Source: Mycobacteriales bacterium (GTDB lineage Bacteria > Actinomycetota > Actinomycetes > Mycobacteriales > SCTD01). From it: a stretch of 64,000 nt of DNA. Every line of letters begins with the position of its first letter. Positions within the stretch are counted from its first letter, which is position 1. Below are positions 1,217-39,917 of the stretch, in pieces. Where the stretch lies: assembly GCA_046590985.1 (NCBI GenBank), contig JBKJVH010000036.1:11325-75324 (forward strand), given 5' to 3'. The notes beneath the pieces are model-generated. The model was given only the letters and a program-made list of their open reading frames with translations. It did no database searches and had not been told where the DNA came from. A program made the position numbers and the translations under genes.

Positions 1217-2728
1217 TCACGCCCGCTCGACCGTGATCCCCCCGTGGAATTCGGCCGCCGAGAAGAACTCGTAGTTCGGGTGCTCCGTGCCGAGCTCTGC
1301 GGCGATCTGGCCCGCCGTCTCGGCGGACACGATGCGGCCCTGCGACGGGCGCAGCCCAGCGGCTGTCGGCGCAGAGCGCTTCAGCAGCCGCAACTCCCAC
1401 TCCTCGAGCACGAGGGTCGAGATCGGGTTGCCCTCGTGCCCGTACGCCCAGCGCAGCAGGTAGCGGGCGCCGGTCGTCTCGCGGCCGCGGTGGCGGCTCT
1501 TGCGGGAGTAGTCGGCCGTGTTCATCTTCGACGCCCGGGAGGCGTCGATCATGGCCTCCTCGGACAGCGAGGCGAGCAGGTCGGCCTCCTGACGGAGTGC
1601 GGCGGCCTGCGGTGCCGGCATGCTGGCGGAGCGGGCCAGGATGTCCTGCATCGAGCTCTGGAACATCGCGGACGCGCCGGCCGCGTCGCCACGGGAGAGC
1701 AGCCGGCCGGCCTCCTTCTTCTGGCGCTGGGTCTGTTGGAACAGCGCCTCGCTGACGACGTCCGGGTCGGCGATGCGGCCGGCGGCCTGATCGCCGGGCA
1801 CCACGTTCACGTGCACCGGCATCGTGGCCGTGTGCTGCACAAGGTCGGGCAGCGACACGTGGGTGAGCTGCAGCGACGCGACCTCCGTGAGGCCGAGCGC
1901 CGGGATCGCGGGAATCGCCAGCTTGAGGACCAGCCGGCGGGTCTCGCCGGCGTAGAAGGAGCCGAGCTCCACCATGATGCCGTCGCTGAGGGCGACCGTG
2001 GGTAGGTCGTTGAGCAGCGTCACCACGTCGACGTGCGGGGTGAGCGCCACCTTCAGTGACGCGGCTTGAGCGACTTGGCTGAGCAGGCCGTCGATCTCGC
2101 CGCCGATGAGGGCGGTCGCGGTGTCGGCCTCCTCCGCGAACAGCGCGTTGCCCTGCCCGCCTTCGGCGAGGGCAGCGAGCAGCGTCTCGTCGTACCCGAG
2201 ACCGAAGCCGAGGGTGGAGGTGGTGACGCCGTGGGTGGTGGCCTCCCTCGCCACCGAGCCCAAGGAGTCCGGGTCGGTGACGCCGGCGTTGGCGTGGCCG
2301 TCGCTGACGATCAGCAGCGTGGCACCGGCGGCGGTGGCGACGCGACGGGCCTCTTGCAACCCGCGGAGGTACCCAGCGGACAGGTCCGTCGACCCGCCGG
2401 CGTCGAGAGCCGCGACGGCGGCCTTGGCGCGGGGCTTGTCGGTGAGAGGCCCTGCGGGGATGACGATCTGCACCTCGTTGTCGAACGCGACAACCCCCAA
2501 GTTGTCCGTCGGTTCGAGCCGGTCGATGAGCGACAGCAGCGCGGTTTTGGCGCCCTCGAGTCGGTCACCGGACATGGACCCGCTGCGGTCCAGCACGATC
2601 TGAACGGTGGCGGGGACACGGGTGACGGTGACGAGCGGGGTCGGGGCGGTGATCTCGACGAGCAGTGTCAGCTCGTCCATCGACTCGACGGCGACGAGGT
2701 CGCAGTCGAGGTGCGTGGAAAGGTGCAT
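1217..2728 (-). CDS. von Willebrand factor type A (VWA) domain protein with long C-terminal extension
   Basis: 503 aa. MIDAS motif residues are present: DRSGSMSG (DxSxS), GGSTDLSAG and IVSDGHAN. VWA occupies roughly the first 200 aa, followed by beta-rich and helical regions and an unassigned tail of about 90 aa. Confidence 0.85.
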   Translation of the reverse strand: MHLSTHLDCDLVAVESMDELTLLVEITAPTPLVTVTRVPATVQIVLDRSGSMSGDRLEGAKTALLSLIDRLEPTDNLGVVAFDNEVQIVIPAGPLTDKPRAKAAVAALDAGGSTDLSAGYLRGLQEARRVATAAGATLLIVSDGHANAGVTDPDSLGSVAREATTHGVTTSTLGFGLGYDETLLAALAEGGQGNALFAEEADTATALIGGEIDGLLSQVAQAASLKVALTPHVDVVTLLNDLPTVALSDGIMVELGSFYAGETRRLVLKLAIPAIPALGLTEVASLQLTHVSLPDLVQHTATMPVHVNVVPGDQAAGRIADPDVVSEALFQQTQRQKKEAGRLLSRGDAAGASAMFQSSMQDILARSASMPAPQAAALRQEADLLASLSEEAMIDASRASKMNTADYSRKSRHRGRETTGARYLLRWAYGHEGNPISTLVLEEWELRLLKRSAPTAAGLRPSQGRIVSAETAGQIAAELGTEHPNYEFFSAAEFHGGITVERA

Positions 2729-3109: not shown

Positions 3110-3184
3110 GTCCCCCCAGGCGTTGTTGTGTGTACTTCCTTTGTACGGAAAGGGTCCGACAGTTTGGGCGCGCCTCCTTGACAG

Positions 3185-3781
3185 TCAGTCGTTCTCCGCG
3201 TCTTGGGCCTGGCGGATCATGCGTACGACGTCGAGCGGGTTGGCCAACCGCCAGGCCTGCAGCCGGACGAGGTCCTCGTACGACTCGGTGCCCTGGCGAC
3301 TGTGGTGCCAGGCCAGGGCGTCGCCGGCGTACCAGACGTTGGCGATGGGGCGGGCCTTGCGGATCGCCGCGATGGCGTCGACCGCGTCCCAGCCCTGGTG
3401 CAGGAGGACAGCGAAGCCGAGCGACGGGCCCCGGTTGATGCCCATGTGGCAGTGCGTCAGGACCACGGCGTTCGGTCCCGCGGCGTCGATCCACTCGATC
3501 GCCGCGTCGAACCAGGCCGCCGCTACGTCCTGCCCGGCGTCGTCCATGCCGTGGTGCAGGTAACCGATGTGGGGGAGGTGCTGGGCAAGGAGGTCCTCGT
3601 CGTTCCACTCGATCCGGCAGTCCACGATGTGCGTGATGCCGAGGCTGTCGATCTCGTTGAGCTGGTAAGCCGCCTTGAGCGGCGTGGCGTGCAGGTCCCC
3701 GCCGATCGCCAGGTGCGGGGTGACGAAGTGAAAGTTGGCGTGCTGGGCGATCGGCAGGGTCTGCAAGGTGGTGGCCTCCAA
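3185..3781 (-). CDS. dual-specificity / Cys-based protein phosphatase (CX5R)
   Basis: 198 aa. The active-site loop HCHMGINRG matches the HCxxGxxR signature, and a candidate general-acid Asp loop (GMDDAG) lies about 40 aa upstream. Confidence 0.8.
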   Translation of the reverse strand: MEATTLQTLPIAQHANFHFVTPHLAIGGDLHATPLKAAYQLNEIDSLGITHIVDCRIEWNDEDLLAQHLPHIGYLHHGMDDAGQDVAAAWFDAAIEWIDAAGPNAVVLTHCHMGINRGPSLGFAVLLHQGWDAVDAIAAIRKARPIANVWYAGDALAWHHSRQGTESYEDLVRLQAWRLANPLDVVRMIRQAQDAEND

Positions 3782-3959
3782 GGGCTGATCGGTGATCTGC
3801 GCTGAGCATAACGCTGCTGACAGAAGATATGCAAGAGGCAGATTTCAGGAGCTCGGGGAAGCCGCCAGAGCGCCGCCGGCGCCGTCCCGTTGATCCGATG
3901 AGCCTCCCTCACTTCTCGTCGTCTTGACGATAACCTCGGGGTCTGACAAGGTCGAGGTC

Positions 3960-11709: not shown

Positions 11710-11954
11710 GTGTCCGCCCTTCCGGTCAGCGGCGCTGAGTGCATTGTGCCCCGAAAGGTGGACGATCGTGCTCCGACGACAAACCCTGGCTCGTCGGACA
11801 GCATCCGGTTCCGCTCCGGGTGCTCCAGGTGAAGACCGGCTCGCGTCGGGAAGCATCACGGCTGCGCGACCCGGGTCGGGGAGCTCGTCCGGAGCTTCCA
11901 CGGAGCTGCACCACGTTCTACCCTTCTGCGGCATGTCCGGTTTAGGCTCCGGAC

Positions 11955-21182: not shown

Positions 21183-21254
21183 CGGCGCTCCTCCTTCTTC
21201 GACTCGGAGTGTTTCCCGGAACGTACAGGTTTCCGCGCCGGGCAGACTGTCGAG

Positions 21255-25533: not shown

Positions 25534-25608
25534 GCATCCTGTCCGATCGGGCCATTGACCGCTGGTCAGGGCGGGCGGAGGGTCAGGGCAACCCGACCCA
25601 GGAGCCCC

Positions 25609-26646
25609 ATGATGCGCATCCTCGCCCGCGTGCTTGCCGTCACCGCCCTCGTCCTCCCGTTCTCGGCCCCGGGGGTGGCGCAAGCCCGCTCGCACCCTCA
25701 GGTCACGGTGATGAGCCGCAACATCTACCTCGGGTCGGACCTGACACCGGCCGTCACAGCCGGCAGCATCCCGGCGTTCCTCGGGGCGGTGGCCACGATC
25801 TACGGCACGGTGCTGTTCACCGACTTCCCCGCCCGGTCGGGCGCCCTGGCGGACGAGGTGCTCGCTCAGCGCCCCGACCTCATCGGGCTGCAGGAGGTCT
25901 CGAAGTGGACCGTGACCGGGCCCGCCACCGTGCCGGGCCTGGACTACCTCGCGATCCTGCAGGCGCAGCTCGCCGCCCGCGGGCTGCACTACGACGTGGC
26001 AGCGGTGTCGGACAACGCCGACATCGGTCCGGTGCCGCTGGCCGGGCCGTTCTGCACCGGCCCGGTCGGCGCCTGCCTGCTGCGCTTCCAGGACCGGGAC
26101 GTCATCCTCGTCAACCACGACTCCGCGGTCAGCGTCAGCAACCCTCGCACCGGCCGGTACGCCCACCAGCAGGTCATCGCCACCCCGGTCGGCCAGCTGT
26201 CGTTCGCCCGCGGCTGGGCCACGGTGGACGCCACCGTCGACGGGCACTCCTTCCGCTTCGCCAACACCCACCTGGAAACTGAGGACGCCCCGGCGGTCCA
26301 GCAGGCCGAGGGCGTGGAGTTCCTGGCGGCGGTGCGAACGCGGGGTGCGGTCGTCGCGGTCGGTGACTTCAACAGCGCCGCCGACGGCAGCACGACCACG
26401 ACCTACGCCGACCTGACGGGCGACTGGTTCCGGGACGCGGCTCCCGGCGTCGGCCTCACCTGCTGCCAGAACGGCACCCTCACCAACCCGGTGGCGGCCT
26501 ACGGCAGCCGGATCGACCTGGTGCTGGTCCACGGCCCGGCGCAACCGGTGAGCGCAGTACGCGTGGGGGCGGTGCCCTTCCAGGCATCCCCGCCGTTCTG
26601 GTCCTCCGACCATGCGGGTGTCGTGGCGCGGGTGCGGCTGCCGTAG
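25609..26646 (+). CDS. secreted endonuclease/exonuclease/phosphatase (EEP) family protein
   Basis: Signal peptide MMRILARVLAVTALVLPFSAPGVAQA. EEP blocks VMSRNIYLG, GLQEV, ANTHLE, GDFNS and SDHAGV. Confidence 0.75.
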   Translation: MMRILARVLAVTALVLPFSAPGVAQARSHPQVTVMSRNIYLGSDLTPAVTAGSIPAFLGAVATIYGTVLFTDFPARSGALADEVLAQRPDLIGLQEVSKWTVTGPATVPGLDYLAILQAQLAARGLHYDVAAVSDNADIGPVPLAGPFCTGPVGACLLRFQDRDVILVNHDSAVSVSNPRTGRYAHQQVIATPVGQLSFARGWATVDATVDGHSFRFANTHLETEDAPAVQQAEGVEFLAAVRTRGAVVAVGDFNSAADGSTTTTYADLTGDWFRDAAPGVGLTCCQNGTLTNPVAAYGSRIDLVLVHGPAQPVSAVRVGAVPFQASPPFWSSDHAGVVARVRLP

Positions 26647-27360: not shown

Positions 27361-28227
27361 ATGCGCGTACTCGTCACCGGATCCCTCGGCAAGGTCGGCC
27401 GAGCCACCACGGCCGCTTTGCTCGCGGCCGGTCATGACGTCACCGGCGTCGATGTGGCCCGGGCGTCGTTCGACCGGCCGGAGCCCGGTTCGCCGAAGTA
27501 CCAGCAGGCGGAGCTGACGCTGGCGGGGGATGCGTACGCGGTGGTGCGCGGGCACGACGCCGTGGTGCACGCGGCCGCGATTCCCGAGCCGACGCAGAAC
27601 CCCGCGCACACGGTGTTCCAGAACAACCTGATGTCGACGTTCAACGTGCTCGAGGCGGCCATCCGCTTCGGGCTGAGCAGGTTCGTGAACATCTCGTCGG
27701 AGACGGTGCCGGGGTTCTTCTTCCCGGAGCGAGCCGTGCTGCCGGTGTACGCACCGGTCGACGAGGAGCACCCGATCGCGCCGCAGGACCCGTACGCGCT
27801 GTCGAAGCACTTCGGGGAGCAGCTCATGGACGCGGCGGTCCGGCGCTCGGACCTGCGCTGCATCAGCATCCGGCCGAGCTGGGTGCAGACGCCCGACAAC
27901 TACGCGCGGAACCTCGGGCCGATGCTTGCCGACCCGGACGAGACGTCGGCGGGGCTCTGGTCCTACATCGACATCGAGGACCTCGCGGATGCGATCGTGC
28001 TCGCGGTCGAGTCGGAGCTCTCCGGCCACGAGGTGTTCTACATCGCCTCGCCGGACAACGTCGGCGGCCGGGACTTCGCGGCCGCGATCCGGCAGCACTA
28101 CGGCGACCAGATCGAGCTCCGGCCGCTGTCACGGGTCGATGCCTCCGGGATCTCGTGCGCGAAGGCGGAGCGGCTGCTCGGCTACCGGCCGACGCGGAGC
28201 TGGCGCGACCACCTCGAAGCCCCCTAG
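27361..28227 (+). CDS. NAD-dependent epimerase/dehydratase family protein
   Basis: MRVLVTGSLGKVG Rossmann motif and YALSK (YxxxK). Confidence 0.85.
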   Translation: MRVLVTGSLGKVGRATTAALLAAGHDVTGVDVARASFDRPEPGSPKYQQAELTLAGDAYAVVRGHDAVVHAAAIPEPTQNPAHTVFQNNLMSTFNVLEAAIRFGLSRFVNISSETVPGFFFPERAVLPVYAPVDEEHPIAPQDPYALSKHFGEQLMDAAVRRSDLRCISIRPSWVQTPDNYARNLGPMLADPDETSAGLWSYIDIEDLADAIVLAVESELSGHEVFYIASPDNVGGRDFAAAIRQHYGDQIELRPLSRVDASGISCAKAERLLGYRPTRSWRDHLEAP

Positions 28228-31200
28228 TGCTGCACCTGCACCGGTCGACCTCGGGGCTGGCGCTTGCCCGTGGCCTGTGCGAGGTACTGGCGGTGCCGCT
28301 GCCGGAGGTGTTCGCGGCGGAGGTGGTGGCGGTCCCCGCCAAGGGCGTGGAGCGCTGGCTCAGCCAGCGGCTCTCCCACCATCTCGGCGCCGGGGCCGCG
28401 GGCGACGGGGTATGTGCGCACGTGCAGTTCCCCAGCCCTGCAGAGCTTCTCGACACCGCTGTCGCGTCGGGGAGCCCGGAGCTCGCCGCTGCTGTCGAGG
28501 CCTGGCAGCCGGGGCGGGCCGTGTGGCATCTGCTCGACGTGCTCGACGAGCTTCCGCCCGATGAGTGCCTGCCGGTCCTGCGCTTCCTGGGGGACCGGTC
28601 GACCAGCGAACGGCGGTACGCCCTGGCGAGCCGGGTCGTGACGCTGTTCGCGGGCTACGCGAGTGACCGACCGGAGCTGCTCGCGGGCTGGGCCGCCGGC
28701 ACCGACGACGTCCCCGCCGACCTCAGCTGGCAGCCGGAGCTGTGGCGGCGGCTGCGGGACCGGCTGGGTCCGAGCCCGGCCGAGCTGCATGCCCAGGCCT
28801 GCGCCCTGTTGCGCGAGCACCCCGAGCAGGTCCCGCTGCCGGCGCGCCTGAGCTTGTACGGCGTGACCCGCGTCAGCCAGGCGCGGCTGAACGTCGTGGC
28901 TGCCCTCGCCGCGCACCGGGACGTGCACCTGTTCGTGCACCACCCGGGACCGGCGCTCTGGGACGCGGTCGGGGCCGCGGTGGTGGCCAGCCGGGCCGAC
29001 GACGCGTCCAGCCTGCGGGTGCGGCACCCGCTGCTGGCGTCGCTGTCCCGCGATGTCCGCGAGCTGCAGCAGCGGCTGCAGGCCGCGGCCCCCGACCTGG
29101 TGTCGCACCTGCACGAGGTGCCGGTCACCGACGGCACCGTGCTGCACCGGCTGCAGCGGGACCTGCACCGTGATGTCGTGACGGCGGCAGCGGCGTCGGA
29201 CCGGTCCGTCCAGGTGCACGCCTGCCACGGCCCGGCGCGTCAGGTCGAGGTGCTCCGGGAGGTCATCCTGCAGATCCTGCGGGCCGACCCGACCCTGGAG
29301 CCCCGCGACGTGCTGGTGATGTGCCCGGACGTCGAGACGTACGCGCCCTTGATCACGGCAGCGTTCGACACCGACTCCCACCCCGGTGGCAGGTTGCGGG
29401 TCAGCATCGCCGACCGCTCGCCGCGCCAGACCAACCCGCTGCTCGGGCTGGCCGCCCGGCTGCTGGAGCTCGCGAGCAGCCGCGTGACCGGTGCGCAGGT
29501 GCTCGACCTGGCCGGCTCCCCGGCGGTGCGTCGCCGGTTCTGGTTCAGCGACGACGACGTGGAGCAGCTGCGGTCCTGGGTGGTCGCGACCCACATCAAC
29601 TGGGGGCTGGACGGCGCGCACCGGGCGCCCTGGGACCTGGCCGGCGTCGAGCACGGCACCTGGCGGACCGGGATGGACCGGCTGCTGACCGGGGTGGCCC
29701 TGGGGGAGTCCGATACCCCCTATGCCGGGACGCTGCCGCTCGACGGGATCGACTCCACCGACATCGAGCTGGCCGGCCGCTGTGCGGAGCTGGTCGACCG
29801 GTTGGACGACGCGCTGCGAGGGCTCCGGGGCAGGCAGCCGGTGGGTGCCTGGATGACGAGCCTGGAGGACGCGGTGCTCTCGCTCGGAGACGTGCCCGCG
29901 GACGGGCAGTGGCAGCGCGCGCAGCTGGTGGGCGAGCTGAGCGCGGTGCACGAAGCCGCTGCCGGCTCCGGCGCTGAGCTCACCCTGGCCGATGTGGTGG
30001 CGCTGGTGGGAGAGCGCCTCGAGGGTCGGCCCACGCGCACGAGCTTCCGCACCGGTGGGCTGACGGTCTGCACGCTGACGCCGATGCGGTCGGTGCCGCA
30101 CCGGGTGGTGTGCCTGCTCGGGATGGACGACGCGGCCTTCCCGCGGCACAGCCTGCCGGACGGCGACGACCTGCTGGCCCGCGACCCCCGGCTGGGGGAG
30201 CGCGACCCGCGCAGCGAGGACCGGCAGCTGTTCCTCGACGCGCTGCTCGCGGCCGGGGAGCACCTGGTCATCACCTACTCGGGGGCGCACGTGCGGACCG
30301 GGGCCGCGCTGCCGCCGGCCGTACCCGTCGGGGAGCTGCTCGACGCGCTGCCCAGCGGCGTGGTCGTGCACCACCCGCTGCAGCCGTTCGACCCGCGCAA
30401 CTTCACCGACAGCGCACTGGGGGTCGCCGGTCCGTTCTCGTGCGACCTGGCCTCCTACGCCGGCGCGGTGTCGCTGGTCGGGACCCGCAAAGCACCCGAC
30501 CTGCCGTTCGCGGCCCCGTTGCCACCGGCCCCCGTGGAGGTGATCGAGCTCCGCCGGCTCGCGGAGTTCTTCGAGCACCCCGCCAAGGGCTATCTGCGGC
30601 AGCGCCTGGAGGTGTACGGCAGCAGCCACGACGAGGAGCCGAGCGACGCGATCGTGCTGGAGCTCGACCAGCTCCAGCAGTGGTCAGTGGGGGACCGGGT
30701 GCTGCGCGCCCGGTTGCAGGGGGCCGACGTGGCGGCCGTGATCGCGTCAGAGCGTGCCCGTGGGCAGCTGCCGCCCGTGGAGCTCGGCACGGCTCTCCTC
30801 CGGGACATCAGCGGTCGGGTCGACGGGCTGCTCGCGGCGAGTGCAGGGGCTTGGGCGGTGCCCGAGGAGACCGTCGAGATCGACCTGCCGGACGTGCCGC
30901 TGCTCGGGTCGGTGCGGGTTCGCGGCGACGTGCTGCTCACGGTGACCTACTCCAACGTGAAGGCCAAGCAGCGGCTTCGTGCCTGGGTTGAGCTGCTGGC
31001 CCTGACCGCAGCTGCCCCTGGACGCGCCTGGACGGCCGCCGTCGTCGGTCGGGCGCCGCGCGGGAAGGTCGTGACGCACACCCTCGGCCCGGTCTCGCCG
31101 GGGGATGCCCGGACCTGGCTCGGGGAGCTCGTCGCCCTGCGCAGTGTCGGCCTGCGGACGCCACTTCCCATGCCTGTCAGCACTTCTGAGGCGTACGCGG

Positions 31201-31460
31201 CGCCGCGCCAGTTCAGGGTCGCACCGACGGACGCGATCGAGCAGGCCGCCAAGCAGTGGACCTCAACCTATGACTTCCCCAAGGAGGACGCCGACCCGGA
31301 GAACGTGCTGCTGTGGGGGGCGGGCACCCCGTTTGCCTCCCTGTGGGAGTGGGTCTCCCCCTTGCCGCTGCCGGGCGGGTACGCCGCGGAGCCCTCCGAC
31401 TTCGGCCGCTGCGCCCGCGTCATCTGGCAGCCGCTGCTCGATGCGGAGGTGCGGTCGTGA
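28227..31460 (+). CDS. recC: exodeoxyribonuclease V gamma subunit RecC
   Basis: About 1077 aa from GTG 28227. The size and N-terminus (VLHLHRS...) are typical of RecC. It lies directly upstream of recB with a GTGA overlap. Confidence 0.85.
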   Translation: MLHLHRSTSGLALARGLCEVLAVPLPEVFAAEVVAVPAKGVERWLSQRLSHHLGAGAAGDGVCAHVQFPSPAELLDTAVASGSPELAAAVEAWQPGRAVWHLLDVLDELPPDECLPVLRFLGDRSTSERRYALASRVVTLFAGYASDRPELLAGWAAGTDDVPADLSWQPELWRRLRDRLGPSPAELHAQACALLREHPEQVPLPARLSLYGVTRVSQARLNVVAALAAHRDVHLFVHHPGPALWDAVGAAVVASRADDASSLRVRHPLLASLSRDVRELQQRLQAAAPDLVSHLHEVPVTDGTVLHRLQRDLHRDVVTAAAASDRSVQVHACHGPARQVEVLREVILQILRADPTLEPRDVLVMCPDVETYAPLITAAFDTDSHPGGRLRVSIADRSPRQTNPLLGLAARLLELASSRVTGAQVLDLAGSPAVRRRFWFSDDDVEQLRSWVVATHINWGLDGAHRAPWDLAGVEHGTWRTGMDRLLTGVALGESDTPYAGTLPLDGIDSTDIELAGRCAELVDRLDDALRGLRGRQPVGAWMTSLEDAVLSLGDVPADGQWQRAQLVGELSAVHEAAAGSGAELTLADVVALVGERLEGRPTRTSFRTGGLTVCTLTPMRSVPHRVVCLLGMDDAAFPRHSLPDGDDLLARDPRLGERDPRSEDRQLFLDALLAAGEHLVITYSGAHVRTGAALPPAVPVGELLDALPSGVVVHHPLQPFDPRNFTDSALGVAGPFSCDLASYAGAVSLVGTRKAPDLPFAAPLPPAPVEVIELRRLAEFFEHPAKGYLRQRLEVYGSSHDEEPSDAIVLELDQLQQWSVGDRVLRARLQGADVAAVIASERARGQLPPVELGTALLRDISGRVDGLLAASAGAWAVPEETVEIDLPDVPLLGSVRVRGDVLLTVTYSNVKAKQRLRAWVELLALTAAAPGRAWTAAVVGRAPRGKVVTHTLGPVSPGDARTWLGELVALRSVGLRTPLPMPVSTSEAYAAPRQFRVAPTDAIEQAAKQWTSTYDFPKEDADPENVLLWGAGTPFASLWEWVSPLPLPGGYAAEPSDFGRCARVIWQPLLDAEVRS

Positions 31461-34400
31461 TCGCTGACGCCGACCTCGCCGGGCCGCTGCCGGTGGGTAC
31501 GACCGTGCTGGAGGCCAGCGCCGGCACCGGCAAGACCTGGACGATTGCCGGGCTGGTGACGCGCTACGTCGCCGAAGGGCACGCGCGGATCGACGAGCTG
31601 CTGGTGGTCACCTTCGGACGGGCGGCGACCAGCGAGCTCCGCACCCGGGTCCGGGAGCGCCTGCAAGACGTCAAGGACGGCCTCGGGTTCCCCTCGGCCG
31701 ACCCGGTGGTCCAGCTGCTGTCGATCGGCCCGGCCGAACAGGTGGAGCTCCGCCGGCAGCGGCTCGCGACCGCGCTCGCCTCGTTCGACAGCGCCACCGT
31801 CTCCACCACCCACGAGTTCTGCCACCAGGTGCTCCGGGCGCTCGGCACGGTCGCCGACCTCGACCCTGGCACCGCGCTGGTCGAGAGCCTCAAGGACCTG
31901 GTCACCGAGGTGTGCGACGACCTCTACCTGCGGTTCTGGGGCTACTCCAAGGCGACGCTGCCGTTCAACCGCGCGACCGCGCTGGCCCTCGGCCGCCGCG
32001 CAATTGGGGACCCGGAGGCCCTGCTTCTCCCGACCGGTCGGGTCACCGACACCGACGCGGACCTGCGCGTCCGGTTCGCCGTCGCCGTGCGCAGGGAGGT
32101 CGACCGCCGCAAGCGCCGCGCCAAGGTGCTCGGCTTCGACGACCTGCTGGGGCGGGTGCGCGATGCGCTGGCCGACGAGGTGACCGGCAAGGTGGCCTGC
32201 GAGCGGCTCCGCGACCGCTACCGGATCGTGCTGGTCGATGAGTTCCAGGACACCGACCCGGTCCAGTGGGAGGTGCTGCACCGGGCGTTCCACGGCCACC
32301 GCACCCTCATCGTCATCGGCGACCCGAAGCAGGCCATCTACGCCTTCCGCGGCGCCGACGTCTCGGCCTACCTCAGCGCGCGCGAGAGCGCCGACAGCGA
32401 GCAGACCCTGGGCACCAACTGGCGCAGCGACCCGCGCGTCCTCGACGGGCTTGCCGTGCTGCTCCGCGGCGCCGCGCTCGGCGACCCGCGCATCGTGGTG
32501 CGCCCGGTCGCCGCAGGCCACCCGACCGTCGTCCTCGGACCAGGAACCGATCCCGCGCCTGTACGGCTCCGCATGCTCCCCAGGACCGGACTGCCCCTGA
32601 GCGGCAAGGGCGTCCCGCTGGTCGGCAGGGTCCGCGAGGTGGTCGCCGCCGACGTCGCCGCGCAGGTGGTGGCGCTGCTGCGAGCTGGGCACACCGTGAC
32701 GCCGCGCGGCGGGGTAGCCCGGCCGCTCGAAGCCGGCGACATCGCCGTGCTGGTGCGCAAGGGCGCGCAGGCCCAGGAGGTCCGGTCCCGCCTGCTGGAG
32801 GTCGCCGTACCCAGCGTCCTGACCGGCACGTCGAGCGTCTTCGCGACCGCCGCCGCACAGGACTGGTGCCTGCTCCTGGAAGCGCTGGAGCAGCCGCACC
32901 GGACCGGCCGGGTCCGCCGCCTCGCGCTGTCCTCGTTCTTCGGCTTCGCGGCCGTGGAGCTCGACGGAGCGGCGGGCGTGGAGGCGATCGACGAGCTCGT
33001 CCAGCAGCTCCGCGGGTGGGCCGAGGTGCTGGCAGACCGCGGTGTCGCGGGGCTGTTCGCCGTCGTCGCCGACCAGCACAGCCTGGCGCGCCGGTTGCTG
33101 AGCGAGCCGGACGGCGAGCGGTTCCTCACCGACCTGCGCCACGTCGCCGAGGTGGTCCACGGCCAAGGCGTCGCGGCGGCCCTCGGCCTCGCGGGGCTGG
33201 TGTCGTGGCTGCGGGAGCGGGTGGAGGAGGCCACCGACGACCTGGACCAGGAACGGTCCCGGCGGCTCGACACCGACCGGGCCGCGGTGCAGGTCATGAC
33301 GGTGCACACCAGCAAGGGTCTGGAGTTCCCGGTGGTGCTGGTGCCGTTCGGCTGGGATGCCTTCGGCGGCGGGACCCGAGAGCGCTACCCCCGCGGGCAT
33401 GACGCCGCTGGCGCGCGGACGCTGTTCCTGGCCGGCAAGCAGGACCCGGACTACCACCCCGCCTGTCGCGCCGAGGAGGTCGAGGACGCGGGGGAAGAGC
33501 TGCGGCTGCTCTACGTCGCGATGACCCGAGCGGTCTCGCGGCTGATCCTGTGGTGGGCGCCGTCCACCCAGACCGACCGCGGCCCGCTGCACCGGCTGCT
33601 GCTGTGCCCCGACCCGCAGGCCGTCCCTCCGGTGTTGGCGCTCCCCACCGATGACGACGCCCTCGCCAGCCTGCGGGCGCTCGCCACCGGGGCGGTGAAG
33701 CTCGAGCTGGTCACCGGTGCGCCGTCCCGCGACCGGGCCCCGGCCGTCCCGCAGGCCGACCCGAAGGCGCTGCGCGCCGCCGACTTCGGCCGCGCTGTGG
33801 ACCTGGAGTGGCGGCGGCTGTCGTACTCCTGGCTGACCCGCGACGTCCACGAGGCCGCCGCGTCGGTCACCTCCGAGTCCGAGCAGGACGTCAAGGACGA
33901 CGAGACCGACGAGGTCCGGGAGGAGCCGGCCGACCTCACGGACCCCCTGCACGCGGTGGCGTCGCCGATGGCCGACCTGCCGGGAGGCACCTCGTTCGGC
34001 ACCCTCGTCCACACCGTCCTGGAGAAAGCTGACCTCACGGCCCCGGACCTGCTCACCGAGCTGACCCGGCACGTCGCGGAGCAGGTGCAGCGCAGTGGCT
34101 CCGGCTATGACGTCGCGGAGCTGGCTGCGGCGCTGGTACCGGCGGTGTCCACGCCACTCGGTCCGCTGGCAGACCATCTGCCCCTCAAGGCCTTTGCTCC
34201 CTCGGACCAGCTCACCGAGCTGGACTTCGAGCTGCCGCTCGCGGGCGGGGACGACCCGCACACCCGGGTCAGGTTGGGGACGGTCGGAGCACTCCTGCGG
34301 TCGCACCTGGAGGCTGGTGACCCGGTGCTCGCCTACGCGGCCTTGGTGGAGGCTCCCGCCCTCGCGAACCAGTCGCTCCGCGGCTACCTGGCCGGGTCGA

Positions 34401-34750
34401 TCGACGTGGTGCTCAGGGTCGGCCGTCGTTATGTGGTCGTCGACCACAAGACCAACCGGCTCGCGGGACGGGACGTCGCGCTGACTGCCTGGCACTACCG
34501 GCGGGCAGCGCTGGACCGGGCGATGCTCGAGGCGCACTACCCGCTGCAGGCGCTGCTCTACAGCGTCGCGGTGCACCGCTACCTGCGCTGGCGCCAACCT
34601 GCCTATGACCCTGAGCAGCACCTCGGTGGAGTGCTCTACCTGTTCCTGCGTGGCATGTGCGGCGACGGCGTCGTGGCCGGCGTGTGGGACTGGAAGCCAC
34701 CGGCCTCACTCGTGCTCGCGCTGTCGGACCTGCTGGCCGGTACGCCATGA
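31457..34750 (+). CDS. recB: exodeoxyribonuclease V beta subunit RecB (helicase-nuclease)
   Basis: About 1097 aa. Walker A EASAGTGKTWT, VDEFQDTD, and a C-terminal nuclease motif GSIDVVLRV...VVVDHKTN (RecB DYK-type). Confidence 0.9.
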   Translation: MIADADLAGPLPVGTTVLEASAGTGKTWTIAGLVTRYVAEGHARIDELLVVTFGRAATSELRTRVRERLQDVKDGLGFPSADPVVQLLSIGPAEQVELRRQRLATALASFDSATVSTTHEFCHQVLRALGTVADLDPGTALVESLKDLVTEVCDDLYLRFWGYSKATLPFNRATALALGRRAIGDPEALLLPTGRVTDTDADLRVRFAVAVRREVDRRKRRAKVLGFDDLLGRVRDALADEVTGKVACERLRDRYRIVLVDEFQDTDPVQWEVLHRAFHGHRTLIVIGDPKQAIYAFRGADVSAYLSARESADSEQTLGTNWRSDPRVLDGLAVLLRGAALGDPRIVVRPVAAGHPTVVLGPGTDPAPVRLRMLPRTGLPLSGKGVPLVGRVREVVAADVAAQVVALLRAGHTVTPRGGVARPLEAGDIAVLVRKGAQAQEVRSRLLEVAVPSVLTGTSSVFATAAAQDWCLLLEALEQPHRTGRVRRLALSSFFGFAAVELDGAAGVEAIDELVQQLRGWAEVLADRGVAGLFAVVADQHSLARRLLSEPDGERFLTDLRHVAEVVHGQGVAAALGLAGLVSWLRERVEEATDDLDQERSRRLDTDRAAVQVMTVHTSKGLEFPVVLVPFGWDAFGGGTRERYPRGHDAAGARTLFLAGKQDPDYHPACRAEEVEDAGEELRLLYVAMTRAVSRLILWWAPSTQTDRGPLHRLLLCPDPQAVPPVLALPTDDDALASLRALATGAVKLELVTGAPSRDRAPAVPQADPKALRAADFGRAVDLEWRRLSYSWLTRDVHEAAASVTSESEQDVKDDETDEVREEPADLTDPLHAVASPMADLPGGTSFGTLVHTVLEKADLTAPDLLTELTRHVAEQVQRSGSGYDVAELAAALVPAVSTPLGPLADHLPLKAFAPSDQLTELDFELPLAGGDDPHTRVRLGTVGALLRSHLEAGDPVLAYAALVEAPALANQSLRGYLAGSIDVVLRVGRRYVVVDHKTNRLAGRDVALTAWHYRRAALDRAMLEAHYPLQALLYSVAVHRYLRWRQPAYDPEQHLGGVLYLFLRGMCGDGVVAGVWDWKPPASLVLALSDLLAGTP

Positions 34751-36600
34751 GCGACGTCCGGCTGGCGGTGCGCGCGACCGGGCTGCTGCGCGAGCTCAAT
34801 GAGGGCGGCGTGCTGCACGCGGCGGACGTCCACGTGGCCCAGCGGCTCGGGGCCCTGGCCGGCGAGGCCGACGAACGGGTGCTGCTGGCGCTCGCGCTGG
34901 CCGTCCGCGGGGTGCGCAACGGGTCGGTGGTGCTGGCCCTGTCGGAGGTCCCGGCCACGGTCGGGCCTGACGACGCGGAGGGGGAAGCGCCCTCCCGGTT
35001 CCTGCCGACCTGGCCGGCTCACCACGACTGGCTCAAGGCCGTCCAGGCCAGCCCGCTGGCCGGCGGTCCGCTGCACGTCGAGGGCGACCGGCTCTGGCTG
35101 GACCGGTACTGGCGGCAGGAGGTGCTGGTCGCCAGCACCCTGCTCGACCGCGCCGCCGACCCGCCCGTGGTGGACGCGGCGGTGCTGGCGGCGTCGCTGG
35201 CCCGGCTGTGGCCCGGCAGCGACCCCGAGGACCAGCGCTTCGCCGCGGCGGTCTGCGCGCTGTCTCGCGTCTCGGTCCTCGGCGGCGGACCGGGTACGGG
35301 CAAGACCACGACCGTGGCCCGGCTCCTCGTCGCCTTGCGCGATGTCGACGGGCCCGCGCGGGTGGCGCTGGCGGCGCCGACCGGCAAGGCGGCGGCCCGG
35401 CTGCTGGAGGCGGTGACGTCGGCGTCGGCGGGGCTGACCCCTGCCGAGCAGGCCTACCTCGGCGCGATGACCTCCTCGACCCTGCACCGGCTGCTCGGGG
35501 TGCGCCGCGGCAGCGCGCGCTTCTGGCACCACGCCGGCAACCGGCTGCCGCACGACGTGGTGGTGGTCGACGAGTCCTCGATGGTGTCCCTCACGATGTT
35601 CGCGAGGCTGCTGGCCGCGCTGCGCCCCTCGGCCCGGTTGGTGCTGGTCGGGGACCCGGACCAGCTCGCCTCGGTGGAGGCCGGCGCGGTGCTCTCGGAC
35701 CTCGTCGCTCCCGCCGTCGCGGGCCTGCGCACGGGAGCCTTTGCGGCTGCGCTTTCCCTTGCGGTTCCTCAGGACCCGGTCGACTCCTCCGCACCGGACA
35801 CCCCCGCCGCACGGGTCCGGGACGGGGTGGCGCTGCTCCGGCGGATCCGCCGGTACGACGAGGGCGGCGCGATCGCCTCCCTCGCCGCGGCCATCCGGGC
35901 CGGTGACGCGCCGGCGGCTCTTGCGGTGCTCCGGTCGGGGCAGCCCGGGGTGCGGTTCGAGGAGGTGGCCGACGAGGCGCCGGTGACCTCACCGGCCCTG
36001 CGCAAGGCCGTCGTCGAGCAGGCCCGTCAGGTGCTCGGGCACGCCGGTGCGGGGGAGGCTGCCGAAGCCCTCCGCGCCCTGGAGGCGCACCGACTCCTGT
36101 GCGCCCACCGGAGAGGACTGCGCGGCGTCAGCCACTGGAGCCAGGTCGTGCAGGGCTGGCTCGTGCACGACCTCGGGATCGCGCCGCGGCGCGACGGCCG
36201 GTACGTCGGACTGCCGCTGCTCGTCACCGCCAACGACTACGACAACGGGCTGTGGAACGGCGACACCGGGGTCATCGTGCAGGACGGCCAGGACAGCGCG
36301 GCCTGGGTGGCGGCCTTCGGCACCGGCGGTCCCGACCCCAAGGTCGTGCCGCTCGGGCGGCTCGCGGAGGTGCAGCCGCTGTACGCGATGACGGTCCACC
36401 GTGGGCAGGGTTCGCAGTTCGAGGCTGTCACCGTGCTGCTGCCGCCGGCAACCTCGCCGCTCGGCACCCGCGAGACGCTCTACACCGCCGTTACCCGGGC
36501 CATGAACGAGGTGCGCGTGATCGGCTCGGCGGCGGCCGTGGAGGCCGCGGTCCGGCGGCCGGTGCTCCGCGCGTCGGGGCTGCAGGCGCGGCTGTCCTGA
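34747..36600 (+). CDS. recD: exodeoxyribonuclease V alpha subunit RecD
   Basis: 617 aa. GGGPGTGKTTT, VVVDESSMV, and AMTVHRGQGSQF (typical RecD motif). ATGA overlap with recB. Confidence 0.9.
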   Translation: MSDVRLAVRATGLLRELNEGGVLHAADVHVAQRLGALAGEADERVLLALALAVRGVRNGSVVLALSEVPATVGPDDAEGEAPSRFLPTWPAHHDWLKAVQASPLAGGPLHVEGDRLWLDRYWRQEVLVASTLLDRAADPPVVDAAVLAASLARLWPGSDPEDQRFAAAVCALSRVSVLGGGPGTGKTTTVARLLVALRDVDGPARVALAAPTGKAAARLLEAVTSASAGLTPAEQAYLGAMTSSTLHRLLGVRRGSARFWHHAGNRLPHDVVVVDESSMVSLTMFARLLAALRPSARLVLVGDPDQLASVEAGAVLSDLVAPAVAGLRTGAFAAALSLAVPQDPVDSSAPDTPAARVRDGVALLRRIRRYDEGGAIASLAAAIRAGDAPAALAVLRSGQPGVRFEEVADEAPVTSPALRKAVVEQARQVLGHAGAGEAAEALRALEAHRLLCAHRRGLRGVSHWSQVVQGWLVHDLGIAPRRDGRYVGLPLLVTANDYDNGLWNGDTGVIVQDGQDSAAWVAAFGTGGPDPKVVPLGRLAEVQPLYAMTVHRGQGSQFEAVTVLLPPATSPLGTRETLYTAVTRAMNEVRVIGSAAAVEAAVRRPVLRASGLQARLS

Positions 36601-36615
36601 CCTTGCTACTCTGCG

Positions 36616-36632
36616 GTCAGCATAACGCTGAC
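36616..36632. promoter_or_regulatory. inverted repeat between recD stop and the XRE gene (candidate operator)
   Basis: GTCAGC-ATAAC-GCTGAC with perfect 6-bp arms. It ends 10 nt before GTG 36642, next to the AGGAG RBS. Confidence 0.35.
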
Positions 36633-36641
36633 AGGAGCAGA

Positions 36642-37034
36642 GTGAGTCGAGAGCTGGGTCGGCTGGTCGAGCACCGGCGCCATGAGCTGGGTCTGACGCG
36701 CCGCGACCTGGCGGCCCGGTCGGAGCTGTCCTACCCGTACATCTCCCAGATCGAGACCGGCGACCGCGACCCGTCGCTGCGCACCATGCACAAGCTGGCC
36801 GAGACCCTCGAGATGCCGGTGGAGCAGCTCGCCGGGATGGTCAGCGCTGAGACCTGGGCGTCGCAGAGCGTGTCGGCGCCGAGTTCCCCGTCGACCTTCG
36901 AGGACTCTCTCGAGCTCTACCGCGCGAAGGTCCTGCCGTCGATCGAACGCAAGCTGCAGTCGGTCCCGCCGTTGCTGCGGCTGCGACTCCTCAACGAGCT
37001 CACTGCGTCCGCCCTCGAGGAGCTGCAGGGCTGA
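36642..37034 (+). CDS. XRE-family helix-turn-helix transcriptional regulator
   Basis: 130 aa from GTG 36642. HTH: LGLTRRDLAARSELSYPYISQIETGDRDPSLRTMHKLAETL. The C-terminal ~60 aa are unassigned. Confidence 0.8.
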   Translation: MSRELGRLVEHRRHELGLTRRDLAARSELSYPYISQIETGDRDPSLRTMHKLAETLEMPVEQLAGMVSAETWASQSVSAPSSPSTFEDSLELYRAKVLPSIERKLQSVPPLLRLRLLNELTASALEELQG

Positions 37035-38683
37035 TGCCCCGGTGCTACCCGCCCCATCCGGAGTTCGGCAACGGCCGGCACGGGGAGCAGGTCGTCTGGG
37101 AGGCGCTCAAGGCGGCGCTGCCTGAGGACGCCGCGCTGCTGTACTCGCGGTGGGTCATGGAGCTGGCGGGTGACCAGGAGATCGACTTCCTGGTGGCCTG
37201 GCCGGGGGTCGGGCTCGCCGCGATCGAGGTCAAGGGCGGGCTCGTCGAGCGCGGTGCCGACGACCGCTGGTGGAGCGTCCGAGGTGCTGAGCGCAAGGCG
37301 CTCCAGCCACCGATGGTGCAGGCCTCCGATGCCGCGCACGCCCTCCAGCGCTGGCTCCGGGACAAGGGCGCGGTGGCCGGCCGCTCGCGGATGCAGCACC
37401 TGCTCGCGTTCCCGCACATGGTGGTGCCTGCCAGTCACGATCCCGCCGACTGCCCGCGCCGCCTGGTCATCGACTCCCGTGACCTGGCAAGGATCGACGG
37501 CATCGTGCGCCAAGCCATCGAGAACGGCAAGGGGCATGCGCCGCTGGACTCCGACGGGCTCGAGGAGCTGCTCGAACTGCTGACGATGCAGCTGCCCAGC
37601 CAGGCCGCCCTGCTGTCGCTGTGCGAAGAGCACCAGCAGCTGGTCGATCAGCGCACCAAGCACCAGGCCGAGACGGTCCGGAACCTGGAGGACTGGCCGA
37701 GGGCGGCGGTGATCGGCGGCGCCGGTACGGGCAAGACCTGGATGGCACTGGAACAGGCCCGGCGGCTGACCAAGGACGGCAAGCGGGTCGCGCTGGTCTG
37801 CTACTCCCGAGGCCTGGGGCGGTTCCTGCAACGGATGACCGCGACCTGGCCCAGGCCTCCGGCATACGTGGGGCTCTTCCACGACCTGGCGCTGTCGTGG
37901 GGTGCTGCCCAGCCGACCGGGGACGAGTCGGACTACTACGAGCAGGAGCTCCCGCAAGCGCTGTTCGGCCTTGCCGGCACGAAGCCGCTGAGCGAGAAGT
38001 TCGACGCGGTCGTGGTCGACGAGGGCCAGGACTTCGGCGAGCACTGGTGGCCGTCGCTGCTCCAGTGCCTGAAGGAGCCGGACGACGGCGGCGTGTTCGT
38101 CTTCATGGACCAGGGCCAGCGGGTGTTCGCGCGGCAAGCCAAGCCGCCGATCGCGCTGCCGCCGTACAAGCTGCACGAGGTCATCCGGAACACCCGCCGC
38201 ATCGCCCAGGTCTTCGGCTCCCTCGGACAGGGCCAGGCCAGCTACCCGGGGATGGAGGGGCCGCCGGTGCGGTTCGTGGCCTGCTCCGCCGAGGAGGCGA
38301 TGGGTCGGGCGGACGACGCGGTCGATGCGCTGCTCGACGAGTGGCGGCCCGGGCAGGTCGCGCTGCTGACGACCGGTTCGCGTCACAACCTGCAGCGGGA
38401 GGTCGTCGACGGGCAGGGATGGGATGCCTACTGGGACGCGTTCTTCGACGACGACGACCTGTTCTACGGGCACGTGCTCGGCTTCAAGGGCCTCGAGCGG
38501 CCGGCCGTGGTGCTCGCCGTGAACGGGTTCAAGCAACCCGAGCGGGCCAAGGAGATGCTCTACGTCGGGCTCTCCCGGGCGCGTACGCAGCTGGTCGTCT
38601 GCGGCGACCTCGACGAGATCACCGCGGTCGGTGGAGAGGGCGTCCGCAAGCGTCTCCAGGCCGCCCGGCAAGGGTCTGCCTAA
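37034..38683 (+). CDS. NERD-domain nuclease fused to SF1 (UvrD/AAA_19-like) helicase
   Basis: 549 aa. NERD-like EIDFLVAWPGVGLAAIEVKGG, Walker A GGAGTGKTW, Walker B VVVDEGQDF, and C-terminal LYVGLSRARTQLVV. The start overlaps the XRE stop (TGATG). Confidence 0.85.
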   Translation: MPRCYPPHPEFGNGRHGEQVVWEALKAALPEDAALLYSRWVMELAGDQEIDFLVAWPGVGLAAIEVKGGLVERGADDRWWSVRGAERKALQPPMVQASDAAHALQRWLRDKGAVAGRSRMQHLLAFPHMVVPASHDPADCPRRLVIDSRDLARIDGIVRQAIENGKGHAPLDSDGLEELLELLTMQLPSQAALLSLCEEHQQLVDQRTKHQAETVRNLEDWPRAAVIGGAGTGKTWMALEQARRLTKDGKRVALVCYSRGLGRFLQRMTATWPRPPAYVGLFHDLALSWGAAQPTGDESDYYEQELPQALFGLAGTKPLSEKFDAVVVDEGQDFGEHWWPSLLQCLKEPDDGGVFVFMDQGQRVFARQAKPPIALPPYKLHEVIRNTRRIAQVFGSLGQGQASYPGMEGPPVRFVACSAEEAMGRADDAVDALLDEWRPGQVALLTTGSRHNLQREVVDGQGWDAYWDAFFDDDDLFYGHVLGFKGLERPAVVLAVNGFKQPERAKEMLYVGLSRARTQLVVCGDLDEITAVGGEGVRKRLQAARQGSA

Positions 38684-38702
38684 GACGCGTTACGGTCTCG
38701 GG

Positions 38703-39917
38703 ATGAGCACCCGCGAGCACGATGTCGTCCTGCACGGCGCGACCGGCTTTGTCGGCCGGCTGACCGCCCAGCACCTCAAGCAGCACGCGGGGGATGCCCG
38801 GGTGGCGCTGTCCGGTCGGTCGAAGGACAAGCTGTCAGCCCTTCGCGAGGAACTCGGCGTCGACTGGCCGGTCATCGTTGCCGACGCCGCCGATGAGGGC
38901 TCGATGGCCGCGCTGGCCGCCTCCACCACGGCGGTCGCCACGACGGTCGGTCCCTACGTGAAGTATGGGATGCCCCTCGTGCTGGCCTGCGCCGCTGCCG
39001 GGACGCACTACGCCGACCTGACCGGTGAGGTGCTGTTCGTCCGGGACAGCCACCAGCAGGCGCACAAGCTGGCGAAGGAGTCCGGGGCGCGGATCGTGCA
39101 CGCCACCGGCTTCGACTCGGTGCCGTCGGACCTCGGCGTGCTGCTGCTGCACGAGCAGGTCACCGCCGACGGCGAAGGAACCTTGGAGGACACCGCGCTG
39201 CTGCTCGTGTCGATGCGCGGCGGCGTCAGCGGCGGGACGATCGACTCGCTGCGGGTCATGATCGACGCGGTCATGGCCGACAAGGACCTCCGACCGGTCA
39301 TGGCTGACCCGTACGCGCTGAGCCCGGATCGGGTGCTGGAGCCCGACCTCGGGTCCGAGCGCGACGTGCTGATCCCGACGAAGGACCCGCTGCTGGAGCG
39401 CTGGGTCGCACCGTTCGTGATGGCGCCGTACAACACCAGGGTGGTGCGGCGGAGCAACGCGCTGCTCGGCCACGCGTACGGGCCGGGGTTCCGCTACCGC
39501 GAGGTGATGGGCGTCGGGCGCAGCCCGTTGGCGCCGGTCCTGGCCGGCGGGGTCACCGCGGGAGTCGGCTTCCTGGCAGCCGGGATGGCGTTGCCGCCGA
39601 CCCGGTTCCTGCTCGACCGGGTGCTGCCGAAGCCGGGGGAGGGGCCGTCGGTGAAGACCCAGGAGAAGGGCTACTTCCGCGCCGAGATCCACACCCGGAC
39701 CTCAACGGGAGCCCACTACGTCGCGACGGTCGCCGCTCAGGGCGACCCCGGGTACGCCGCGACCGCCGTGATGTTCGGGGAGAGCGCGCTGTGCCTGGGC
39801 ACCGACGCGCTCACCTCCGCCGGTGGGGTGCTCACCCCTGCGGTCGCGATGGGCTCGACGCTGGCCGATCGCCTCCGCGCCCGCGGGTTCGAGCTGAGCG
39901 TGCGTCGGCTCAGCTAG
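38703..39917 (+). CDS. saccharopine dehydrogenase-like / trans-acting enoyl reductase family oxidoreductase
   Basis: 404 aa from ATG 38703. The N-terminus has the Rossmann motif VVLHGATGFVGRL. Confidence 0.8.
   Translation: MSTREHDVVLHGATGFVGRLTAQHLKQHAGDARVALSGRSKDKLSALREELGVDWPVIVADAADEGSMAALAASTTAVATTVGPYVKYGMPLVLACAAAGTHYADLTGEVLFVRDSHQQAHKLAKESGARIVHATGFDSVPSDLGVLLLHEQVTADGEGTLEDTALLLVSMRGGVSGGTIDSLRVMIDAVMADKDLRPVMADPYALSPDRVLEPDLGSERDVLIPTKDPLLERWVAPFVMAPYNTRVVRRSNALLGHAYGPGFRYREVMGVGRSPLAPVLAGGVTAGVGFLAAGMALPPTRFLLDRVLPKPGEGPSVKTQEKGYFRAEIHTRTSTGAHYVATVAAQGDPGYAATAVMFGESALCLGTDALTSAGGVLTPAVAMGSTLADRLRARGFELSVRRLS

Follow-up and report, generated by a model that had tools for sequence, protein, structure and literature searches.

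An XRE regulator gene and a NERD nuclease–SF1 helicase gene behind recD in a Mycobacteriales genome

We analyzed a two-gene operon that lies directly behind recD in a 64,000-nucleotide stretch of DNA from a Mycobacteriales bacterium (assembly GCA_046590985.1, contig JBKJVH010000036.1, positions 11,325 to 75,324; hereafter the window, numbered from its first letter). The operon codes for an XRE-family helix-turn-helix (HTH) regulator and for a protein in which a NERD nuclease domain is fused to a superfamily 1 (SF1) helicase. An initial annotation, made from the sequence alone, had proposed that the pair is a guard or backup linked to RecBCD, or an accessory factor for DNA-end processing. Loci and proteins of relatives are referred to below by their L and P numbers.

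The XRE and nuclease-helicase genes behind recCBD

The XRE gene (36642..37034, plus strand) begins with a GTG at 36642, after a gap of 41 nt from the recD stop codon (36598-36600), and is preceded by AGGAG at 36633-36637. Its product of 130 amino acids (aa) matched HTH_3 (1.3e-12) and HTH_31 (2.4e-12). The protein consists of an HTH at residues 4-63 (HTH_3 over 12-61), a variable linker, and a conserved C-terminal helix region. The search for homologs yielded 77 sequences, nearly all aligning over 95-100% of the query, and the C-terminal tail was kept at full length in about 75 homologs (alignment A3). The TGA of the XRE gene (37032-37034) overlaps the ATG of the helicase gene (37034-37036) in the sequence TGATG, and the two genes are translationally coupled. 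Start, gap, product length, and overlap were all as first annotated.

The second gene (37034..38683, plus strand) encodes 549 aa and was identified as a fusion of a NERD (PD-(D/E)xK) nuclease and an SF1 helicase by Pfam, PADLOC, an AlphaFold model, and fold matches. The NERD domain (aa 14-112; 37073..37369, plus strand) scored 35.5 bits in Pfam against a cut-off of 22.1 (E = 1.5e-8) and carries E18, E49/D51, and E65-x-K67. The helicase core (about aa 205-530; 37646..38623, plus strand) contains GAGTGKT (Walker A), DEGQD (motif II), QR, RNT, GFKGLE, and YVGLSRA; Pfam UvrD_C_2 scored 30.2 bits against a cut-off of 27.4 (E = 4.1e-7), and AAA_30 and AAA_19 were also matched. In a family alignment of 21 homologs with 54-81% identity (A1), E18, E49, E65, and K67 were invariant, D51 was at least 90% conserved, and helicase motifs I-VI were invariant or nearly so. 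The catalytic residues are therefore intact, and they fit the E/D/ExK pattern that mutagenesis showed to be needed in the NERD nuclease ZwsA. All peptide motifs quoted in the initial annotation were found in the protein, and its domain calls for both genes agreed with Pfam. The AlphaFold model had a predicted local distance difference test score of 79.6, and its best fold matches were SLFN11/14, Upf1, RecD2, and Dna2; the model indicates an SF1B-like helicase core.

Upstream of the pair, on the same plus strand, lie recC (28227..31460; TIGR01450, 755 bits; Pfam Exonuc_V_gamma and RecC_C), recB (31457..34750; TIGR00609, 719 bits; UvrD-helicase and PDDEXK_1), and recD (34747..36600; TIGR01447, 458 bits; RecD_N and AAA_30). 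All three products scored above the NCBIfam equivalog cut-offs. The open reading frame (ORF) called mechanically for recC begins at 28155; the probable true start is the GTG at 28227, which shares TAGTG with the stop codon of an epimerase gene. Both gene overlaps described earlier were present, GTGA at 31457-31460 (recC TGA 31458-31460, recB GTG 31457-31459) and ATGA at 34747-34750 (recB stop 34748-34750, recD ATG 34747-34749). The downstream neighbor of the helicase gene is a saccharopine-dehydrogenase-like gene. Over all genes the GC content was 0.69-0.76 and that of third codon positions was 0.91-0.94, with no compositional anomaly.

The XRE-upstream box and the lack of recBCD adjacency in relatives

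Between recD and the XRE gene, attention had been drawn to an inverted repeat, GTCAGC-ATAAC-GCTGAC. Its position (36616-36632) was exact, and its significance as a control element did not hold: 241 perfect 6-bp inverted repeats with 3-8-nt loops occur in the window, and about 0.15 are expected per 41 nt. In the 92%-identical metagenome contig L094, the sequence of the left arm is GTGGGC. We rejected the repeat as an operator or terminator, as it has no T-run, is common by chance, and is not conserved in L094.

The conserved element overlaps this repeat and has the form TCTGCG-N3-AGCATAACGCTG. It forms a box, TCTGCGGTCAGCATAACGCTG (36610..36630, plus strand), which is a putative promoter/operator. 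A second copy, TCTGCGCTGAGCATAACGCTG, lies at 3796..3816 (plus strand), 15-35 nt upstream of a divergent DSPc gene. The two copies are identical at 19 of 21 positions, and the exact 12-mer AGCATAACGCTG has only two occurrences in the window. The same box was found upstream of the XRE orthologs of L085, L086, L088, and L094, and the copy at 3796-3816 aligned with the native XRE-DSPc intergenic regions of the orthologous loci. A search of 1.75 Mb of fetched sequence that allowed up to one mismatch gave just six copies of the box, every one of them in this intergenic place. Two other origins of the second copy were rejected. A local alignment of the DSPc side (3830-4000) recovered the 21-nt box alone and no XRE remnant. 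Nor was the box accepted as a leftover of the opening DSPc codons, since the DSPc homology runs from TTG 3781 and the ATG at 3807-3809 lies in another frame.

The DSPc gene (3185..3781, minus strand) encodes a DSPc-type phosphatase of the rhodanese-phosphatase superfamily, which matched the DSPc proteins of L085, L086, and L088 with 67-82% identity by tblastn. The family name was taken from the precomputed Pfam labels of those three loci; a Pfam scan of the ORF at 3027-3806 gave no match, and the frame of that ORF differs from that of the DSPc gene. Downstream in the same operon is the gene of a vWA-domain protein (1217..2728, minus strand; Pfam VWA 5.2e-16; 66-69% identity to the vWA proteins of L085, L086, and L088). 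In L085, L086, L088, and L027, whose contigs were long enough, the XRE ortholog is divergent to the DSPc-vWA operon. In the window this operon lies 33 kb from the XRE gene, and an HD_4 gene (3924-4616) fills the usual place of XRE beside DSPc. Since the upstream regions of XRE and DSPc share the box, the XRE gene of the window appears to have moved together with its own control region, and a single XRE repressor probably controls both the nuclease-helicase gene and the DSPc-vWA operon.

In each of the six readable loci, the window included, a NERD-helicase gene was found at a distance of 0.6-16 kb from the XRE ortholog (1.4 kb in L097), and other genes lie between the two in L085, L086, L088, and L097. 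A survey of 80 species-representative genome loci (39-56% identity to the helicase; 10 kb either side), searched by tblastn, revealed an XRE ortholog beside the helicase gene in L027 only; a weak match of 29% was about 9 kb away in L044. As a separate observation on the window, the HD_4 gene and the DSPc-vWA operon are adjoined by a second nuclease-helicase-like gene at 4628-6544 (minus strand). Its product of 637 aa contains a Schlafen group 3/DUF2075 helicase domain (3.3e-87), preceded by 260 N-terminal residues without a domain call. This protein matched the PADLOC candidate PDC-S41 (2.3e-18).

L094 (JGI 3300056674) is a single 1,661-bp metagenome contig whose XRE protein is 97% identical to that of the window. 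It aligned with the window in three blocks of 90-93% nucleotide identity: 1-749 with 27468-28216 (end of the epimerase gene), 764-1263 with 36609-37108 (XRE control region, XRE gene, and first 75 nt of the helicase gene), and 1295-1660 with 38687-39052 (start of the next gene). Two indels separate these blocks. In L094 the epimerase gene joins the XRE gene directly and the 8.4 kb of recCBD are absent between them; the difference is precise (window 28217-36608 against L094 749-764) and is bounded by the stop codons of the epimerase gene and recD. Composition is uniform and therefore does not distinguish insertion from deletion of recCBD. The helicase gene has been deleted from L094 down to its first 25 codons, with 31 unrelated nt (L094 1264-1294) in place of window 37109-38686. 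This 5' stub shows that the XRE-helicase operon is older than the split between the window and L094. To judge by its sequence, the XRE gene of L094 has remained constrained by purifying selection after the loss of its helicase partner.

An 11-13-nt direct repeat, GC(G)TTACGGTCTC, was also noted in this comparison. In L094 it lies shortly before the XRE control region (757-768), and in the window it closely follows the helicase gene, before the next ATG (38688-38700), with a degenerate copy at window 36605-36615. The repeat may be a microhomology or a target site flanking the XRE-helicase segment.

The view of the two genes as a dedicated RecBCD-linked pair was not supported by the comparison with relatives. 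The initial annotation had itself named a lack of recBCD adjacency in related genomes as grounds for refutation, and this is what was observed. Like L094, the closest helicase relatives lack the adjacency: on the contigs examined, those with 81%, 65%, and 61% identity adjoin neither recBCD nor an XRE gene. Their neighbors are Peptidase_S8 and DinB_2 (P0003, 81%), S30AE and UPRTase (P0009, 65%), and a methylase/NOV_C island (P0013, 61%). Only two of the 80 genome loci had recBCD within 10 kb, L050, where recCBD is directly downstream of the helicase gene, and L061, where recBCD is 7.5 kb off on the other strand. The XRE orthologs, for their part, stand beside DSPc-vWA. A gene for an HrpB-type helicase (20289-23714, plus strand) and an Exo_endo_phos gene (25555-26646, plus strand) are found near the NERD-helicase gene in the window and, in another order, on the contig of the 81% homolog (L081, L085). 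The two regions resemble rearranged forms of a single gene neighborhood.

The helicase family, its neighborhoods, and known systems

The 549-aa protein belongs to a large family whose members carry the NCBI name "NERD domain-containing protein". More than 2500 word-indexed matches were obtained, with 98-100% coverage for most among the 120 matches listed, and 861 representative clusters (50% identity) were found at E ≤ 1e-30. Most of the listed members have about 550 aa and match nearly end to end even at about 28-30% identity. The family is widely spread in Actinomycetota, including mycobacteria, Arthrobacter, and Cellulomonas, and the branching of its tree largely agrees with taxonomy (Micrococcaceae, Cellulomonadaceae, Brevibacteriaceae, Mycobacteriales, and Geodermatophilaceae). 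The helicases of the window and L050 are 43% identical, against 44-52% for the RecBCD subunits of the same pair. Literature searches found no biochemically or genetically characterized member.

Mobility of the family by way of plasmids or phages was not supported. Matches were present in 29 of 72,556 plasmid records, none from Actinomycetota among the matches listed, and in a phage collection the sole match was MT835574.1 (6759-8396, full-length, 44.6% identity). That record is an unannotated 86-kb "Bacteriophage sp." contig from human feces, which may be a mis-binned bacterial contig. Clustering of the genes within six positions of the helicase gene in 76 loci revealed no conserved partner, large or small: the top neighbor cluster, an SDR family, occurred in only 10 of the 76.

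One recurrent association was with ARG-centric systems, which are predicted anti-ADP-ribosylation conflict systems (Iyer, Burroughs, Anantharaman, & Aravind, 2022, Viruses; PMC9503650, section 3.8). That paper mentions restriction endonuclease (REase) effectors linked to helicases, and restriction-fold nucleases and helicases are proposed in it as second-line effectors. Genes of this set (ARG, ARPP-1, Macro, NrtR-type Nudix regulators, REase-ARP, and TY-Chap1) were present within 10 kb of the helicase gene in 16 of the 80 genome loci, and most of the longer loci from metagenomes had them as well. They are immediately adjacent to the helicase gene in L010, L020, L025, L026, L090, L091, and L097. 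ARPP-1 is directly upstream of it in L090 and L091, which are among the 5 short loci obtained from a metagenome scan with the single protein. R-P phosphatase and vWA genes were likewise found beside relatives of the helicase gene. Helicase relatives are also embedded in ARG-centric systems in L088, L090, L091, L096, and L097, the last of which carries the full system. The TY-Chap1 domain is fused to the C-terminus of the NERD-helicase in P0014 (715 aa) and is encoded by a separate gene (1871-2314) directly downstream of the helicase gene in L096. P0021 (714 aa) is close in length to P0014 and has no TY-Chap1 match on record.

The DSPc, vWA, and XRE genes of the window are orthologs of genes from these neighborhoods, split between 1.2-3.8 kb and 36.6 kb. 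A tblastn search with the ARG proteins of L088 and L097 found no match in the 64-kb window. The regulator also differs, being an XRE HTH protein where the published description names Nudix or WYL regulators. ARG-centric systems are themselves predictions, and membership in the window is incomplete, without an ARG gene.

The other association was with operons for DNA-end resection. Of about 85 family loci, about 13 had an operon of the AdnAB/AddAB type (a UvrD plus nuclease protein with a PDDEXK_1 partner) or of RecBCD within 10 kb. The chance expectation of about 1-1.5% (1-2 such operons in a genome of 4-5 Mb) is a rough estimate and not a whole-genome computation. Five loci, L022, L044, L046, L050, and the window, had the operon immediately adjacent and co-directional. 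The order was adnB then helicase, with a 22-nt gap, in L022; adnAB then helicase in L044; helicase then adnAB in L046; and helicase then recCBD in L050. These adjacencies occur in several clades of the family, in two gene orders, and with two different machines, and AdnB-like and AdnA-like proteins were the most recurrent single-copy neighbor families. The Micrococcaceae loci are related and not mutually independent. Literature searches linking NERD with AdnAB, RecBCD, or mycobacteria found nothing.

In two species of Pseudarthrobacter (L032 11705-14269; L030 11752-14349), the gene directly downstream of the NERD-helicase gene encodes a fusion of an XPB/ResIII-type SF2 helicase and a complete sigma-70 factor (regions 1.2, 2, and 4), and is followed by adnAB. 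The fusion matched PADLOC PbeA (1.4e-59) and MzaA (8.4e-54). Since ARG genes and this PbeA/MzaA-like fusion are found in the same regions, the flank of adnAB could be a hotspot for islands.

PADLOC-DB already contains the NERD-helicase architecture among its candidates. The best match in the PADLOC library was RTasNERD-Hel (PDLC03813; E = 6.7e-32, query 4-267 on profile 4-270 of 519), which shares the layout of an N-terminal NERD domain and a C-terminal helicase with the window protein. RTasNERD-Hel stands for the NERD-helicase whose gene neighbors those of UG34 reverse transcriptases (cluster 485; Mestre et al., 2022, PMC9226505); the link was predicted from co-location in 7 of 17 UG34 members. 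No reverse transcriptase gene flanks the helicase gene and no reverse transcriptase domain was found in the window ORFs scanned, so membership in the UG34 type of defense-associated reverse transcriptase systems fails. The candidate C3a187 "NERD+UvrD" (PDLC01087) shares this two-domain layout and is only a candidate model without a described mechanism; the match (E = 3.9e-18, residues 17-368) was partial and weaker than that to RTasNERD-Hel.

Nhi (nuclease-helicase immunity), named as a comparison in the initial annotation, reportedly combines a nuclease and an SF1 helicase in one chain, as does the window protein. The PADLOC model of Nhi matched only the P-loop (E = 4e-5, residues 210-255 on profile 186-232 of 470), and without a full-length profile match the window protein is not a member of Nhi. 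RecBCD, AddAB, AdnAB, and Dna2 likewise join an SF1 motor to a PD-(D/E)xK nuclease, and RecD, RecD2, and Dna2 were among the fold matches. Unlike that group, the window protein is one small chain with an N-terminal NERD domain instead of a C-terminal RecB-type nuclease, and it has no Chi-recognition or accessory domains. Schlafen/DUF2075 (SLFN-g3) proteins gave the top matches among solved structures and sequences (SLFN11, 1.1e-14 by fold and 1.8e-5 by sequence) and also carry the nuclease N-terminal to the SF1 motor. However, the TM-score was 0.34, the Schlafen nuclease has a different fold, and the true SLFN-g3 helicase of the window is the separate one at 4628-6544.

Interpretation and rival explanations

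We put a probability of about one half on the following interpretation: the operon would encode an ATP-driven NERD nuclease-helicase acting on DNA and repressed by the XRE protein, effector-like in neighborhoods of ARG, vWA, and phosphatase genes, and recently rearranged to its place behind recD. We infer the enzymatic activity, DNA as the substrate, the repression, and the biological role. The 549-aa protein would come from an actinobacterial family of stand-alone NERD/SF1 fusions that is large and old and has been passed on mostly by vertical descent. Its SF1 motor would load on DNA and translocate or unwind it at the expense of ATP, and the strand would be fed to the N-terminal, Mg2+-dependent NERD nuclease, by which foreign or damaged DNA would be degraded or processed. 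The helicase gene would have been captured into a two-gene operon behind the XRE repressor, which itself would have been relocated, with its own box, from a place divergent to DSPc-vWA; the latter operon, with its box, persists at 1.2-3.8 kb. The gene set would belong, in other genomes, to ARG-centric conflict neighborhoods that process ADP-ribose. The position behind recD would be a recent strain-level juxtaposition and no conserved RecBCD partnership.

Several observations weigh against this interpretation. Consensus scans of 36300-38900 for promoters and terminators found none, and read-through from recD is therefore possible. The operator role of the box is a prediction, and the L094 evidence is one 1.6-kb metagenome contig. 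No ARG, ARPP, Macro, NrtR, or TY-Chap gene was found in the 64-kb window, so the enzyme would here be detached from most of the ARG-centric system, and the PADLOC models gave no match for the DSPc and vWA proteins. A family that evolves about as slowly as the RecBCD subunits, with a tree that tracks taxonomy, would be unusual for a defense effector with fast turnover; it is also rare on plasmids and almost absent from phages. Finally, the recurrent adjacency to AdnAB or RecBCD is left without an explanation.

That adjacency is what speaks for an accessory factor of DNA-end processing or repair, which would work with or parallel to AdnAB/AddAB-type enzymes or RecBCD, such as at ends that are blocked or modified. 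We regard this explanation, the chief rival, as possible but doubtful. Part of the initial proposal thus retains support at the family level: the frequency of about 13 in about 85 loci exceeds the rough expectation, the adjacency events lie in several clades and involve two machines, with five cases adjacent and co-directional, the family evolves slowly and in step with taxonomy, and recCBD and the helicase gene are both missing from L094. About 85% of the loci, the nearest relatives among them, nevertheless have no resection operon nearby. The Arthrobacter region also contains defense-like genes (the helicase-sigma fusion and ARG systems) and may be a hotspot, the Micrococcaceae loci are not independent, the chance figure is only an estimate, and the literature searches gave no link of NERD proteins to either machine. 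The broader claim, that the NERD-SF1 family is an unrecognized accessory of double-strand break resection in actinobacteria, with AdnAB/AddAB-type enzymes or RecBCD and perhaps on ends or strands that adducts such as ADP-ribose block, we hold to be unlikely.

A toxin-antitoxin or abortive-infection module, with XRE as antitoxin or repressor and the nuclease-helicase as toxin, appears very improbable. The overlap between the XRE stop codon and the first codon of the nuclease gene is of the kind that type II toxin-antitoxin modules usually show; the XRE protein gave weak matches to HipB-type antitoxin and control-protein models, and L094 keeps the regulator and has lost the effector. The tight pairing was, however, observed in this lineage alone: XRE is absent or separate across the 80 genome loci, genes intervene between XRE and helicase in four of the loci described above, and the 76 clustered loci have no conserved small partner. 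Least probable of all is the RecBCD guard or backup of the initial annotation, in which the pair would sense phage inhibition or loss of RecBCD and then destroy DNA. Its domains, catalytic residues, and translational coupling were borne out; the dedicated link to RecBCD was not. The co-directional position behind recD with no terminator found between, the joint absence of the helicase gene and recCBD from L094, and the helicase gene directly upstream of recCBD in L050 are consistent with a guard. Against it, recBCD is close in only two of the 80 genome loci and other members stand by AdnAB or by neither machine, the XRE gene has its own imported control region, and no sequence feature suggests a RecBCD sensor.

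The locus itself is ordinary and belongs to a known candidate kind; the box, the L094 variant, and the two associations make its function testable. The regulatory hypothesis is simple, with one XRE repressor, two near-identical boxes (the 12-mer exact), and two operons, and L094 is a natural knockout for comparison. ADP-ribose-processing conflict systems and resection operons offer two leads on the function of the family. If it acted on ADP-ribose-type adducts, this would also explain the ARG, Macro, ARPP, and phosphatase partners, and ARG-centric islands would then be systems of DNA-adduct repair, not purely of anti-phage protein de-ADP-ribosylation. To our knowledge, AdnAB, RecBCD, and RecO do not cover all recombination activity in actinobacteria, and a true resection link would add a new player to these pathways; if the link is false, the protein would be an ordinary accessory nuclease-helicase that sits behind recD by chance.

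Some further genes were noted in the first part of the window. A gene at 11955-12920 (plus strand) encodes a 321-aa fusion of an ERCC4 nuclease domain and a C-terminal Lsr2 DNA-binding domain; neither this protein nor the HD_4 protein was matched by a PADLOC model. Two large GGDEF-EAL proteins, one of them with PAS domains, are encoded by convergent genes at 6747-9140 (plus strand) and 9109-11934 (minus strand), whose 3' ends overlap by about 30 nt.

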